The translations under genes were made by a program, and so were the position numbers. The notes beneath the pieces were generated by a model that was not told where the DNA came from, ran no database searches, and saw only the letters and a program-made list of their open reading frames with translations. DNA of 58,346 nt from an uncultured virus (IMG/VR IMGVR_UViG_3300044639_001309) (lineage: Duplodnaviria > Heunggongvirae > Uroviricota > Caudoviricetes): the IMG/VR virus record IMGVR_UViG_3300044639_001309, positions 62,001 to 120,346 of that record, one strand, 5' to 3'. Of this stretch, positions 3,055 through 36,853 are shown piece by piece; position 1 is the first letter of the stretch, and each line of letters opens with the position of its first letter.

Positions 3055-3315
3055 TTACTCCGAAAACTCGTAAAACTTAACGCTGGCATCCAATTTCTGC
3101 AATTCACGTGCCGCGGCAGACAATTGACGATAGCGGGCTTGGACCTGGCTACGGGGCAGTTCGCCATCGCAGGTCAAGTTCTCTGGACTTAAATCTGCAT
3201 CCAAACTGTCAGCAACTTGCTGACGACCGGCGGCTGTGGTGATTTCATATTGACGACCATTAAAAATCGCATTCCATTTGTTTTTTTGGTCAATGTATGC
3301 TTGAAGTGCTTTCAT
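3055..3315 (-). CDS. hypothetical early protein (LSPENLTCDGE family)
   Basis: 86 aa; promoter plus AGGAGTTAGAG RBS. Confidence 0.85.
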   Translation of the reverse strand: MKALQAYIDQKNKWNAIFNGRQYEITTAAGRQQVADSLDADLSPENLTCDGELPRSQVQARYRQLSAAARELQKLDASVKFYEFSE

Positions 3316-32958: not shown

Positions 32959-33605
32959 TGTATTTTAACATTGCCATTGATCATATCATCAACCTCAGGT
33001 AGCCAGGTGTAATCAACAAGAGTGTCATTTATTTTAATCAGATCATAATTGACCCACAACAACTTAAATCCGTATTGTTCCATACTTAACAACCAGGCTT
33101 GCAGTAATATGCTAAAATTGTGTTTTAATCGATTATGAAAAATAAAGATATCCCTAAAAGAGAAAAATATTTGTGTGCCTGGCTTAAAGAACCTAGTTTG
33201 GAATTGCCAATACTCGGTATACTCATCAAATGTTTTCCACCTTAGTCTTATGGTGTTGTTAACAATAAAATTGTCAGCTTGGTTGTACAAATGTTTAACA
33301 GAATCTTCTCCTGTGTCAATAACGGCCTTTGGATACCAGGACAGTACCAAAGGTACTAGTTCGATTACTGTTAAATTGTCAATTGCAGGGTCAAGATAAT
33401 ATCCAGCACCATCATATGTAATAGTCTTACCTGGACTCAGATGATCAATGATGTACTTGTCGTAGTTGTCAAGTATGATTTCTTTTGAATGACGATTTCT
33501 TACAAAATAGTTATGTTTAGGTTTGCTAAATTTCCATCTTGTGTAACTGGTTCTAAAGTCTGTTCTTAGAACTGCGTCTGCATATTTTCCAATTACTTTC
33601 GACAT
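32940..33605 (-). CDS. hypothetical protein (possible degenerate methyltransferase fold)
   Basis: 221-aa ORF coupled to neighbours. Confidence 0.6.
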   Translation of the reverse strand: MSKVIGKYADAVLRTDFRTSYTRWKFSKPKHNYFVRNRHSKEIILDNYDKYIIDHLSPGKTITYDGAGYYLDPAIDNLTVIELVPLVLSWYPKAVIDTGEDSVKHLYNQADNFIVNNTIRLRWKTFDEYTEYWQFQTRFFKPGTQIFFSFRDIFIFHNRLKHNFSILLQAWLLSMEQYGFKLLWVNYDLIKINDTLVDYTWLPEVDDMINGNVKIHWEYCP

Positions 33606-34123
33606 AATAATAACTCACATGATGGCACTACCCAGGTAAAACAACTACCGTCTTCGACAAATATTTCGCTACGATTTAATACAACAGTATCTCGAAGATT
33701 GTTTTCTAACCATTTAACAATAGCTGTATCAAAATGCTCAGGTAACCCTGGGTCAACAAATGTTTCTGCGGCATTTAAATAATAACGGTTTAAACAAAAG
33801 TAAATCCTAGGACATAAATCCAATAACAAATTTAGTTCTGTAATCATATTTTTTACTGTGAGCCTGCTAAATCGTTGGTCAGTGATGACAACTAGTTCAG
33901 CGTCACCTGGTGATACCAGTTGAACATTGTGTTTATCAAAAAACTTATCCAATATTTTATTATCTTTGAGTACATGAACTTTGCTGATACCATTGTTAAT
34001 GATATAATCCTCAATGTTCTTTTCCCTGCGAATTTTGCACTCCTCTGCAAATAGTCGTAGCTGTAGTCTTCCCCAATTTGGGTGTCGCCATACTTTAGGA
34101 TGTTTTTCAAACGTAATATTCAT
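33593..34123 (-). CDS. hypothetical protein
   Basis: 176 aa; TAAATA 9 nt upstream. Confidence 0.65.
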   Translation of the reverse strand: MNITFEKHPKVWRHPNWGRLQLRLFAEECKIRREKNIEDYIINNGISKVHVLKDNKILDKFFDKHNVQLVSPGDAELVVITDQRFSRLTVKNMITELNLLLDLCPRIYFCLNRYYLNAAETFVDPGLPEHFDTAIVKWLENNLRDTVVLNRSEIFVEDGSCFTWVVPSCELLLCRK

Positions 34124-34160
34124 AAGATTTTGTATTTACGGCACTCGTCAACACATACAA

Positions 34161-34191
34161 ATAAAAAAAGAGGTACCCTAAGGTACCCCTT
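34161..34191 (-). terminator. intrinsic terminator of the AAA ATPase transcript
   Basis: Minus strand AGGGGUACC-UUAG-GGUACCUCU followed by UUUUUUAU. Confidence 0.9.
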
Positions 34192-34194
34192 AAA

Positions 34195-34230
34195 CGGATC
34201 ATCTAGGAGCTAGACTAAAATGATGATCCG
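34195..34230 (-). ncRNA. candidate 3'UTR antisense RNA element; hairpin loop complementary to early-gene RBS
   Basis: CGGAUCAUC-[AUUUUAGUCUAGCUCCUA]-GAUGAUCCG; loop is the reverse complement of AGGAGCUAGACUAAAAU. Confidence 0.55.
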
Positions 34231-34247
34231 GTAACCTTACCTGCTAA

Positions 34248-35279
34248 TTAGGCACTCTTCATACATGTTGTCTCGCTCATGCGCTTCCAGTTGTTAGGAA
34301 AGCTCTTGCGCAAGTCTGCAATCTTCAGCGCCATACGCAGACTTACCTCACGCAGGCGTTCTTTGTTGACATGCATAAAGTCAATAATGTCATCTTGTGC
34401 ATACTCGTTAAAGTCGTAGTCTGCAAACAACACACCATCTTTGGCAATCTGTTTGATGCGCAACAGTTTGTCACGCATGGTGTCCAGGGTCAAGTCCAGA
34501 TAGTGGCAACGACTTTGCAATGCGTCCAAGTGATCCCGCAATTTTTGCGATTTCATTTGGTCAAACTTTAAGTTTGTAATAAAGATAACACTACCTTTAA
34601 ACTCAAAACGGTCTGGGATACCTTCACGACGCAAAGCACTAGACTCTGACAGCCATGAAATAGTACGCTTCTTGCCGGAGTCCAGGGCACCCTTGAGCAA
34701 GTTAAGAGCAACGTCATCTAACAAGATGCTGTCACAGTCGTCAAAAACAACTACGCAATTGGCGTCACTAAATTTGTAAAGTGTTTGATACAAACCAATT
34801 GGAGTGGCACTACCTTTAACTACCTCGGCACGAAGTCGTTTGCTAGCCAATTTGTCAAACAAGCAGGCCTTGTCAATTTCTTGCTCCACACCAAAGCTTT
34901 TGCCTACGCCGGGTGGGCCGCTCACAATCATAGCACGGATATCGCCGCTGACACAGGCTTTGGTCATGTCGTGCAGGATATCAAATCGCTCACGAATACG
35001 ATCCATTGCTTGCTCTTCGGTTTCCACCGGAGCAGTATGTTTAAATTCTACTACCTTAGTTTCTTTTACACTGGGCATGTTATCTCCAACAATTTCTATA
35101 TCTTGAATGCTATCAACTTTGATGCGTACCACATTGTGTTCTGCGCCAAAGTAGCCATTGCTTTCTACTGTCACAAAGCCACCTCGAGCGCCTTGTGTGT
35201 AGTCTTTAACTAGTGTAAAAGTAACACCACGAACAGTTTGTTTGCGGTAGTTACCGCTACGAACGAGTACTTGCGTCAT
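34248..35279 (-). CDS. phage AAA+ ATPase (early)
   Basis: GPPGVGKS Walker A, VVVFDDCD Walker B, IFITN sensor 1, ALQSR Arg finger. Confidence 0.88.
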   Translation of the reverse strand: MTQVLVRSGNYRKQTVRGVTFTLVKDYTQGARGGFVTVESNGYFGAEHNVVRIKVDSIQDIEIVGDNMPSVKETKVVEFKHTAPVETEEQAMDRIRERFDILHDMTKACVSGDIRAMIVSGPPGVGKSFGVEQEIDKACLFDKLASKRLRAEVVKGSATPIGLYQTLYKFSDANCVVVFDDCDSILLDDVALNLLKGALDSGKKRTISWLSESSALRREGIPDRFEFKGSVIFITNLKFDQMKSQKLRDHLDALQSRCHYLDLTLDTMRDKLLRIKQIAKDGVLFADYDFNEYAQDDIIDFMHVNKERLREVSLRMALKIADLRKSFPNNWKRMSETTCMKSA

Positions 35280-35312
35280 TGATCTGGCTCCTGTTTTGTT
35301 AAGTTATGCTAT

Positions 35313-35341
35313 ATTATAGCAAACTGTGAATTACCGGTCAA
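35313..35341 (-). promoter_or_regulatory. early sigma70 promoter TTGACC-N17-TATAAT
   Basis: TTGACC GGTAATTCACAGTTTGC TATAAT. Confidence 0.9.
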
Positions 35342-35404
35342 CTGTTAGTTGATCTTGTTGCAAACAATACAAAACTTGTATTCCTTGCTACTTATTATTG
35401 TATA

Positions 35405-35433
35405 ATTATAGCAAAACCCTATTTAATGGTCAA
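35405..35433 (-). promoter_or_regulatory. second tandem early promoter TTGACC-N17-TATAAT
   Basis: TTGACC ATTAAATAGGGTTTTGC TATAAT. Confidence 0.88.
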
Positions 35434-35492
35434 CCAGGATTTTTTGCCTATTTTTTAAGCAGTTTTTGGGTGTTGTTTTTGTGCAACAAAAG

Positions 35493-35517
35493 AAAAACCC
35501 TACTAGTAGTAGGGTTT
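35493..35517 (-). terminator. intrinsic terminator
   Basis: aaaccctact-agt-agtagggttt hairpin with U-rich tail on the minus strand. Confidence 0.8.
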
Positions 35518-35546
35518 GATAAGAAAACTGCTTAATTTTTAAGCAT

Positions 35547-36113
35547 TTATTCAATAGGCAATGCCCTAACAACTTTCTGTGTGCAAGTCAATGTGCTTTC
35601 GTTAGTAATTAAATATTGCCATCTACCAACTTGTGCAGGGTCAGTTGGATTTTTATCAGGAACCGCTACTCCGTTAATCTGAACGTTTTCTCTTCCATCG
35701 GTGACATTATAATCTACTGGTACATAATTATCCACAGATGCAGTTACAAAGGTTCTTCCTGGATCATCAGCACTAAAAATTGGTCCAGCAGGAATAGAGT
35801 CGGGATTGTTTCTGTCTGGTAAACGACTTGGATCTACTGTGTATACGTCGCCGCCGTAATTAGCAGTAATTCTGCCGTAGAATAAATCACCACCGGTCAC
35901 AGTTAAAGTCAAAGGAATGTCACCATATACAGAAGTGTCTGCTTCAAATGTAAACAGTTCTGATAGGCCTTCGTTATTATTCCCAGGGGTTGCTCCTGTT
36001 GATGCAGAAACAGCGCCTGTAAACACTGGTTGATTGTTAAAATTTAAACTCACTGTTACAGGACCACCTGTAGTGAATGCTTTGCCATAAAACTTAAATG
36101 TGCGTGTAGCCAT
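35547..36113 (-). CDS. putative virion structural protein
   Basis: TATAAATA late promoter, GGAG RBS, own terminator; beta-rich. Confidence 0.7.
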   Translation of the reverse strand: MATRTFKFYGKAFTTGGPVTVSLNFNNQPVFTGAVSASTGATPGNNNEGLSELFTFEADTSVYGDIPLTLTVTGGDLFYGRITANYGGDVYTVDPSRLPDRNNPDSIPAGPIFSADDPGRTFVTASVDNYVPVDYNVTDGRENVQINGVAVPDKNPTDPAQVGRWQYLITNESTLTCTQKVVRALPIE

Positions 36114-36133
36114 TGTGTTATCTCCAATTATAG

Positions 36134-36853
36134 TTATTTATACTTGATCCAGAACTTCTGCACAACCGGGTCAGTAATTTCATGAGGTTTGGGATTTCCG
36201 TGAAAAATAGCAATACGTGTTGTGGGGTCTAACAATGTGCCTGCGCCTGGTCGACGGTATTTTCTTGTTTTAAAATCAAGTCCTCCGTCCAACAACTGCC
36301 AGCGCCAGCTTTTAATTAAATTACTGTCAAAAAACCGTATGTCTCTTGGGTTTAATATTGCGGACAAATAATCTTGGTCTCCTGGGTATTTTTTTATTAC
36401 GTCTGACAGATCTTGTGTCAAAAAATCGTTCCAGATGTAGCTAAATTTAACTGTGTCCCAAAGCATTAAACTTGAGTTAATTCCTGCCCAATCACGCCAT
36501 AGGTATTTAAAATCTTTAATTGTCCAAAAATACTTGCTACTATCGCTCCATAAACAGTCTATGTTTTCAAATATAACGGTGTCAAGATCTAGGTACAACA
36601 TTCTGCCTTGAAAATGTTCAGGGTTAAAAAGTTGTAACTTGTACCACCAACTTTGTCTAGGTCCAGAAACTCCTGGCCAATCTATTAATTCGTGTTTGAT
36701 AAAAGGTGACGGTACACCACGAGAAGCTTCTGTGTAAACATGAAACCGTACGTCCATGCTGACGTTTCTACAGATCATATGGTATAAAGTATCAACATAG
36801 GACCAGTTATATTTGTCTCCATGTATCAAACATGCACAGTCAACTGTGGTCAT
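36134..36853 (-). CDS. GT-A glycosyltransferase (GT8-like)
   Basis: WWYKL, YLDLD, INSS, GDQDYL, FHGNPKP. Confidence 0.85.
   Translation of the reverse strand: MTTVDCACLIHGDKYNWSYVDTLYHMICRNVSMDVRFHVYTEASRGVPSPFIKHELIDWPGVSGPRQSWWYKLQLFNPEHFQGRMLYLDLDTVIFENIDCLWSDSSKYFWTIKDFKYLWRDWAGINSSLMLWDTVKFSYIWNDFLTQDLSDVIKKYPGDQDYLSAILNPRDIRFFDSNLIKSWRWQLLDGGLDFKTRKYRRPGAGTLLDPTTRIAIFHGNPKPHEITDPVVQKFWIKYK

Follow-up and report, generated by a model that had tools for sequence, protein, structure and literature searches.

The 3′ end of an early ATPase unit in an uncultured giant freshwater phage probably carries a module aimed at the ribosome-binding site (RBS) of the ATPase itself, and thereby a brake on ATPase translation. 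The module is a hairpin just before the terminator, and its loop contains a short seed complementary to the Shine–Dalgarno sequence (SD) and spacer of the ATPase gene. The initial annotation had read this loop as antisense to RBSs and had counted the ATPase RBS among its targets. Co-variation of seed and RBS across related phages supports the first of these claims and supports the second very strongly.

The ATPase unit and the hairpin in its 3′ tail

The window, by which we mean the whole stretch of 58,346 nucleotides analysed here, is part of a 120-kb IMG/VR fragment. It is found at 100% identity as positions 267752-326097 of a 341,990-bp record that is 95%-complete (G001). By gene content the phage is a jumbo myovirus whose genes for replication and recombination are T4-like; this set includes UvsX, UvsY, a gp32-like SSB, a DnaB-type helicase, primase, RNR and terminase.

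The ATPase at the centre of this analysis is a P-loop/AAA-like protein. Its Pfam matches to AAA_16 and AAA both lie under the cut-offs, and it has no match in the PDB (best E = 0.69) or in NCBIfam. Homologues are present in 1308 phage records, the best of them (42-48% identity) in PA5oct-like Pseudomonas jumbo phages, the nearest cultured ones. At the nucleotide level, blastn of the phage collection with 33600-35400 gave no match.

Two predicted early promoters precede the gene, and terminators flank the whole (Table 1). We therefore regard the ATPase as a single-gene early unit of ~1.15 kb with the hairpin in its tail. Most related loci have the same promoter type 5′ of the ATPase as the window's proximal promoter. 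The tandem promoters of the window are near-identical and lie 92 bp apart, with no intervening ORF.

Table 1. Features of the ATPase unit and candidate target sites. Positions are those of the window unless another record is named.
Feature	Position	Strand	Basis or remark
Predicted terminator just 5′ of the ATPase promoters	35517-35495	-	sequence prediction
Upstream early promoter, sigma-70-type, TTGACC-17-TATAAT, extended TG	35405..35433	-	11/12 consensus matches; predicted from consensus match only
Proximal ATPase early promoter, sigma-70-type, TTGACC-17-TATAAT, extended TG	35313..35341	-	11/12 consensus matches; predicted
ATPase TIR segment AGGAGCCAGA (SD + spacer), proposed loop partner	35283..35292	-	9/10 positions pair
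ATPase gene, P-loop/AAA-like, 343 aa	34248..35279	-	phrog_1250, E = 4.5e-84; function unknown
ATPase stop codon TAA	34250-34248	-	read from sequence
Hairpin 1, 5′ arm CGGATCATC	34222..34230	-	sequence, RNAfold, comparison of stems
Hairpin 1, 18-nt loop ATTTTAGTCTAGCTCCTA (also written AUUUUAGUCUAGCUCCUA)	34204..34221	-	read from sequence
Anti-RBS seed UCUAGCUCCUA within the loop	34214-34204	-	complementarity to SD + spacer
Hairpin 1, 3′ arm GATGATCCG	34195..34203	-	sequence, comparison of stems
Intrinsic terminator	34158..34191	-	hairpin 34191-34168 (10 pairs, 5 G-C) and T-run 34167-34158
RBS AGGAGCTTGA	start 2228		can pair with loop over 9/10
RBS AGGAGTTAGA	start 3315		can pair with loop over 10 nt, one G·U
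RBS AGGAAGCTACCAAAATG	start 2707		
RBSs with GGAG-A	starts 15441, 18455, 27913, 36113, 48267		
Holin gene	G001:70195-70778 (= L097:10195-10778), outside the window		Pfam GTA_holin_3TM (28.7 bits, cut-off 24.8); best predicted target, listed at G001:70206

The hairpin described in the initial annotation, its coordinates and the RBS strings quoted alongside it all proved correct on re-reading. Following the ATPase TAA, the order is a 17-nt spacer, a perfect 9-bp stem with its loop, TTT and the terminator, in a 3′UTR of ~85 nt. Both hairpins are present in the minimum-energy fold of 34155-34255 (RNAfold, -33 kcal/mol, z = -3.23), and 2 of 200 shuffled sequences fold as well. No Rfam family reached its gathering score on either strand of 33000-36500; the best scores were for sbrA (21.2 bits, cut-off 45, E = 0.44) and Atu_C8 (21.2 bits, cut-off 50).

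In most relatives (loci L008-L081), the T-run of the element's terminator merges into the TTGAC of the next early promoter (TTTTTTTGAC...TATAAT or TATACT), and such fusions form compact terminator–promoter cassettes. At 34151-34146 the window does have TTGACG, but a -10 box is not recognisable. The gene right after the element (start 34123) lacks an SD; it is preceded by GTAAATAC at 34132-34139 (minus), ending 9 nt upstream.

Co-variation of seed, ribosome-binding site and stem

A protein-guided scan of IMG/VR returned 461 relatives, and we used the best 80 of these 461 loci (ATPase identity 74-100%). Their 3′ flanks share a recurring ...(A/G)(G/A/C)CTCC... motif that adjoins a hairpin just before the terminator. 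This motif is the reverse complement of the SD and spacer of the ATPase at the same locus, and a change in the RBS is accompanied by a change in the motif. At least 10 distinct pairs of translation initiation region (TIR) and seed have changed together, among them GGAGCCAACC / GGTTGGCTCC (the commonest), GGAGTTAAA / TTTAACTCC, GGAGTTGGC / GCCAACTCC, GGAGCTAAC / GTTAGCTCC, GGAGCGAAA / TTTCGCTCC, TGGAGCAACA / TGTTGCTCCA, AAGGAGCTAG / CTAGCTCCTT, AGGAGCTAGA / TCTAGCTCCT, GGAGCTAA / TTAGCTCC and CAGGAGTTAAA / TTTAACTCCTG.

We counted these matches in two ways. The first count ignored the RBS and was anchored on the first convincing terminator, which gave 50 non-redundant rows, two of them mis-anchored on in-gene T-runs. 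In 43 of the remaining 48 rows, at least 7 contiguous Watson–Crick nucleotides to the locus's own ATPase TIR lie within 45 nt 5′ of the terminator. The second count was based on the motif and in part chose, among candidate CTCC sites, the best match to the own TIR; it gave exact complementarity of 7-11 nt in 47 of 52 non-redundant loci and of 6 nt in the other five, the window included. Three further loci yielded no element in this motif-based search, one of them with a flank that ends early. The loci are phylogenetically related and the counts are not independent, so that the figure of at least 10 distinct seed/TIR pairs is the safer one.

A permutation test with one representative for each of 22 TIR classes leads to the same point. 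The mean extension of the match past GGAG is 3.41 nt for the true pairings; permuted pairings average 1.34 and reach 2.41 at most, and none of 10,000 permutations attained the observed value. Co-evolution of loop and RBS, which the initial annotation had put forward as a check on its own proposal, is thus found across the related ATPase loci.

The distance between the two partners is itself informative. The element lies anywhere from 4 to 1731 nt past the ATPase stop, always at the 3′ end of the unit, a spread that reflects the small genes often inserted between ATPase and element. The RBS partner is 1-3 kb further upstream, with differing genes in between, and the coupling is therefore one of function rather than of adjacency. 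Moreover, in the genomes of four relatives the ATPase TIR is the only early-promoter TIR with the full 10-mer, and over the whole genome of one relative (G002) it is the best genuine predicted target (-22.3 kcal/mol).

The window's own copy is among the five weakest of the 52 loci, with its 6-nt match. Its loop agrees with the ATPase RBS at 9 of 10 positions, with one C·A mismatch (AGGAGC-c-AGA), so that the contiguous part is 6 nt, plus 3. The RNAduplex energy of loop and ATPase TIR, -14.4 kcal/mol, ranks 6 of 437 TIRs in the 342-kb genome; five other TIRs score equal or better, and the best belongs to a holin gene. For comparison we made 300 pseudo-loops (G001) in which CUCCU was fixed and the flanks were shuffled, and 10 of these 300 pair with the ATPase site as strongly as the real loop does.

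Relatives of the window phage help to explain this modest match. The complement of the window loop includes AGGAGCTAGA, a perfect 10-nt match to the ATPase RBS of the relative L071, whose own loop is nearly identical to that of the window. The ATPase RBS of L006, a 97%-identical relative, is AGGAGCCTGA and has two mismatches to the loop. The series of a perfect match in L071, one mismatch in the window and two in L006 indicates that the loop was kept while the RBS drifted in the window's sub-lineage. With the ATPase match decayed to 9/10, regulation in the window phage may be weaker than in most of its relatives. The 'anti-AUG' part of the loop that the initial annotation proposed is a misfit: the gap from AGGAG to AUG is 10 nt in the loop complement and 8 nt in the ATPase gene.

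The stem also co-varies. A loop of 14-21 nt holds the seed, in its 3′ part, at 34 non-redundant loci, of which the window is one. The stems that close these 34 loop-type hairpins measure 6-9 bp and come in 20 distinct versions, all of them paired; the window and L071 stems differ by two fully compensatory changes (C-G to U-A and A-U to G-C). In the remaining loci the seed is single-stranded and directly 5′ of the hairpin, sometimes only 4-7 nt past the stop codon.

A covariance model trained on the loop class (34 sequences) recovers a single element at 52 of the 56 non-redundant loci, 34 of the 52 being the training sequences, which match by construction; in three loci there is a weak second hit. 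Paired cells make up 95.3% in the model-fitted alignment and 72.6% after shuffling (none of 500 shuffles as high), and compensatory changes are seen in 15 of 16 pairs; for helix 2, the terminator, the figure is 8 of 9 pairs. Being fitted to the model, this alignment leans towards it, and the hand count of the 34 loop-type hairpins agrees with it. When the partner is slid by 1-3 columns, pairing falls to 32-50%. The stem co-variation that the initial annotation had suggested seeking with such a model is therefore present, and the conserved hairpin is an RNA element and not a chance fold.

Near-complete genomes G001 and G002 each have a single copy by the covariance model, and the layout of hairpin, seed and terminator occurs only at the ATPase unit. 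A general tail/RBS rule in this phage is out: at the 36 predicted terminators, the complementarity is the same for upstream TIRs as for unrelated ones. We also dropped two further readings of the seed. Pairing with the terminator stem, as in an antiterminator, is contradicted by terminator stems that in most loci have no GGAG, and a nut-like boxA/boxB reading does not account for a seed that tracks the RBS.

Look-alikes were seen in two other places. Some 45 nt before another terminator, G001:228650-228711 (plus) contains ATTCTCCT. A gene 2.4 kb upstream has the RBS AGGAGAAT, to which this string is complementary; control pairs are equally long, so that this pairing is not distinguishable from chance. 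Further afield, PA5oct (MK797984.1 249889-249935, L117) has a hairpin arm, ATGCTACT, at +20 past the stop of the ATPase homologue, and the arm is complementary to 8 nt of the gene's leader (AGTAGCAT, overlapping the SD). Two other 8-mers in the same flank match by chance, and the covariance model finds nothing over the PA5oct region. This arm in PA5oct could be remotely analogous to the element, or could be chance. The T4-like Citrobacter phage Ci1 showed nothing of the kind.

Candidate targets beyond the ATPase

The initial annotation envisaged a wider role, in which a trans-acting small RNA from the 3′ end accumulates and represses a regulon of early mRNAs with AGGAG-C/U RBSs and so acts as an early-to-late timer. 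We consider such a regulon unlikely. It has several points in its favour. The layout is like that of 3′UTR-derived Hfq-type sRNAs, with an unpaired seed, a hairpin, a U-rich linker and a terminator, and the TIRs at 3315 and 2228 can pair with the loop over the lengths given in Table 1. The loop is indeed the exact consensus of the three RBSs singled out by the initial annotation; this is arithmetically true and has no statistical weight. As to the distinction drawn between C or U after GGAG in early genes and A in others, the strings are correct, and genome-wide (G001) the base after GGAG is C/T in 10 of 14 early-promoter genes and in 21 of 65 others (Fisher p = 0.013).

However, a search over all translation starts, which the initial annotation had named as the way to look for early-promoter enrichment, does no better with the real loop than with CUCCU pseudo-loops. 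Early genes account for 7 of the top 30 targets in G001 (pseudo-loop mean 4.6; 62 of 300 as high) and for 6 of the top 30 in G002 (pseudo-loop mean 3.6; 40 as high among 200 pseudo-loops that kept the CUCC(U) core), and the enrichment is thus not significant. A second line of evidence comes from homologous genes. We examined 33 early genes of G001, of which 23 have a homologue in G002, a genome with a different seed. A match of at least 7 nt between RBS and G002 seed is seen for the ATPase homologue alone; the others reach 6 nt at most. With no enrichment, and with only the ATPase homologue tracking the seed, the conserved partner is the ATPase's own RBS. A loop tuned to the early-gene RBS consensus, and a timer built on it, are not borne out.

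The last point in favour of a regulon concerns the 9-mer AGGAGCCAA, which the G002 seed can pair with and which is found in five early-promoter genes in G002 (ATPase included), three in G003 and two in G004. It lies within nearly identical promoter–leader cassettes, so that duplication or common descent could explain why it is shared. A lineage-specific wider reach beyond the ATPase is possible. As for the cassettes themselves, small early genes at G002:159555-160668, 193110 and 233757 (L149-L153) have nearly identical copies ending in AAAAGGAGCCAA, and from their sequences these look like duplicated or shuffled regulatory modules.

The holin gene, which does not belong to the early genes, is a different kind of candidate. 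The window loop is perfectly complementary, over 11 nt, to its RBS, TAGGAGCTAGA, the best of the 437 predicted targets (-20.0 kcal/mol); 8 of the 300 G001 pseudo-loops reach a value of this kind for any gene. G002 has another seed, and there too the RBS of the holin, AGGAGCCAAC, ranks in the top three targets (-21.9 kcal/mol). The pairing is weak in G003, G004 and G006 (-12.4 to -14.7 kcal/mol), and the G006 genome has no exact GGAGCTAGA besides the element itself. Strong in two of five genomes, the holin is not a general target, and we rejected it as a conserved one; its pairing could be chance or a lineage-specific extension. It is quite unlikely, judging from these predicted pairings, that the 3′ fragment would be a genuine phage small RNA that combines ATPase feedback with restraint of a lysis gene, as an RNA 'anti-holin'.

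Another feature of gene starts in G001 is (G/T)TAAATA, a string that we take to resemble the T4 late promoter. It ends 4-7 nt before the start codon in 21 of 437 genes, with ~0.13 expected per offset. In the window, the string concerned is the GTAAATAC ahead of the gene that starts at 34123. The genes concerned are mostly without an SD, which suggests leaderless or near-leaderless middle or late mRNAs.

Proposed mechanism and known systems

We propose that the hairpin loop before the terminator would present its seed to the SD and spacer of the ATPase, which is the first gene of the unit. After the 3′ end is made, this seed would pair with the ATPase initiation region and block binding of the 30S subunit. 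The outcome would be negative feedback, with the ATPase yield per message limited in time or in degree. The paired stretch comprises the SD and spacer that the 30S subunit needs, and for this reason a translational brake is the simplest reading.

The brake could take either of two forms. The 5′ and 3′ ends of one message might pair intramolecularly, as in icaR; alternatively, a terminator-protected 3′UTR-derived sRNA of ~70 nt might act on other molecules of that message in the manner of OppZ/CarZ. The sRNA form would agree well with the order in which seed, hairpin, U-rich linker and terminator follow one another, and co-variation with one gene would suit a cis or an sRNA form. That pairing represses translation is our inference, as is the form of the acting RNA; we take the direction of the effect by analogy from bacterial precedents only, and the opposite effect, stabilisation instead of repression, could be the true one.

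Among metatranscriptomes, each of 17 runs contained only 5-9% of the sampled words. Four runs yielded short contigs from 90-99% relatives at depth 2-20, at which ends, levels and strand are not resolvable; one contig spans the region from the loop to past the terminator.

Stabilisation would work by closing the ends of the message, with 5′–3′ pairing shielding the leader from endonuclease or 5′-end-dependent decay. The hbs mRNA of Bacillus subtilis is described as a precedent (PMC5737220), and the seed/RBS co-variation reported above fits any function that depends on pairing. However, the SD and spacer are themselves paired here and must be free for initiation, so that protection without repression is hard to picture and we regard it as very unlikely. 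Scarcely credible is the notion that the hairpin does no more than stabilise the 3′ end structurally or resemble a second terminator, with incidental anti-SD letters, or that the two sites form a DNA-level inverted repeat, for instance for cassette recombination: the window match alone is modest and T-runs leading into TTGAC recur as terminator–promoter cassettes in these genomes, but the seed/RBS pairs co-vary while stems change freely, the seed is in every case unpaired, on the transcribed strand and adjoining a hairpin just before the terminator, the link to a partner kilobases away across variable genes is functional and not physical, and 7-11 nt would be too short for homologous recombination.

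If the element is a translational brake, it matters for three reasons. Natural variation has here performed the compensatory-mutation experiment repeatedly, which places the family among the best sequence-supported cases of 5′–3′ mRNA pairing. The design is compact and portable—a loop that holds a seed of 7-11 nt, followed by a terminator—and might be used as a programmable translational brake. Finally, the ATPase, widespread in T4-like and jumbo phages and uncharacterised, is flagged as a product whose dose is tightly controlled.

To our knowledge, only a handful of bacterial messages limit themselves by means of their own 3′ end. Phages have related devices, in which a site downstream of a gene, or far from it, controls expression via RNA structure. 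The sib site of phage lambda controls int from downstream, by RNase III-triggered 3′ decay and not by RBS pairing. RNA phages such as MS2 mask RBSs over a long distance, inside the coding RNA of a single-stranded RNA genome. The open-access papers that we searched contained bacterial precedents and described no such element for phages. T4 RegB reaches early mRNAs by another route: as reviewed, this protein endoribonuclease inactivates them at GGAG SDs, and regB also curbs its own synthesis, by way of the SD of its own gene (PMC3014915). In that account RegB is a protein that acts on many early genes, whereas the phage element is RNA with one conserved gene partner.

The closest likeness in cis is icaR of Staphylococcus aureus, in which a short C/U-rich motif of the 3′UTR is described as pairing with the SD region of its own mRNA and hindering initiation, so that the message restrains itself post-transcriptionally (Ruiz de los Mozos et al. 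2013, PMC3868564). In the phage tail, likewise, a 3′UTR motif is complementary to the SD region of its own message (9/10 in the window; 7-11 nt in 47 of 52 loci). There is no sequence or structural homology between the two. The icaR 3′UTR is reported to exceed 100 nt and its duplex to be an RNase III substrate (PMC3868564), whereas the phage 3′UTR is ~85 nt long and its predicted duplex spans 7-11 bp. The phage seed of 7-11 nt sits either within the loop of a hairpin or immediately before one on the 5′ side, its pairing runs from the SD into the gene-specific spacer, and its host genome is that of a phage.

OppZ and CarZ of Vibrio cholerae offer the parallel in trans. These terminator-closed operon 3′ ends are described as pairing with their own transcript and inhibiting its translation, a negative feedback exerted by RNA (Hoyos et al. 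2020, PMC7398697). According to the same paper they are released by RNase E and act in trans, and OppZ also triggers Rho-dependent termination. The phage element differs in that its target is the RBS of the first cistron. It shares with OppZ and CarZ complementarity to a TIR of its own operon, with co-variation, and a Rho-independent terminator at the 3′ end, whose helix co-varies as well.
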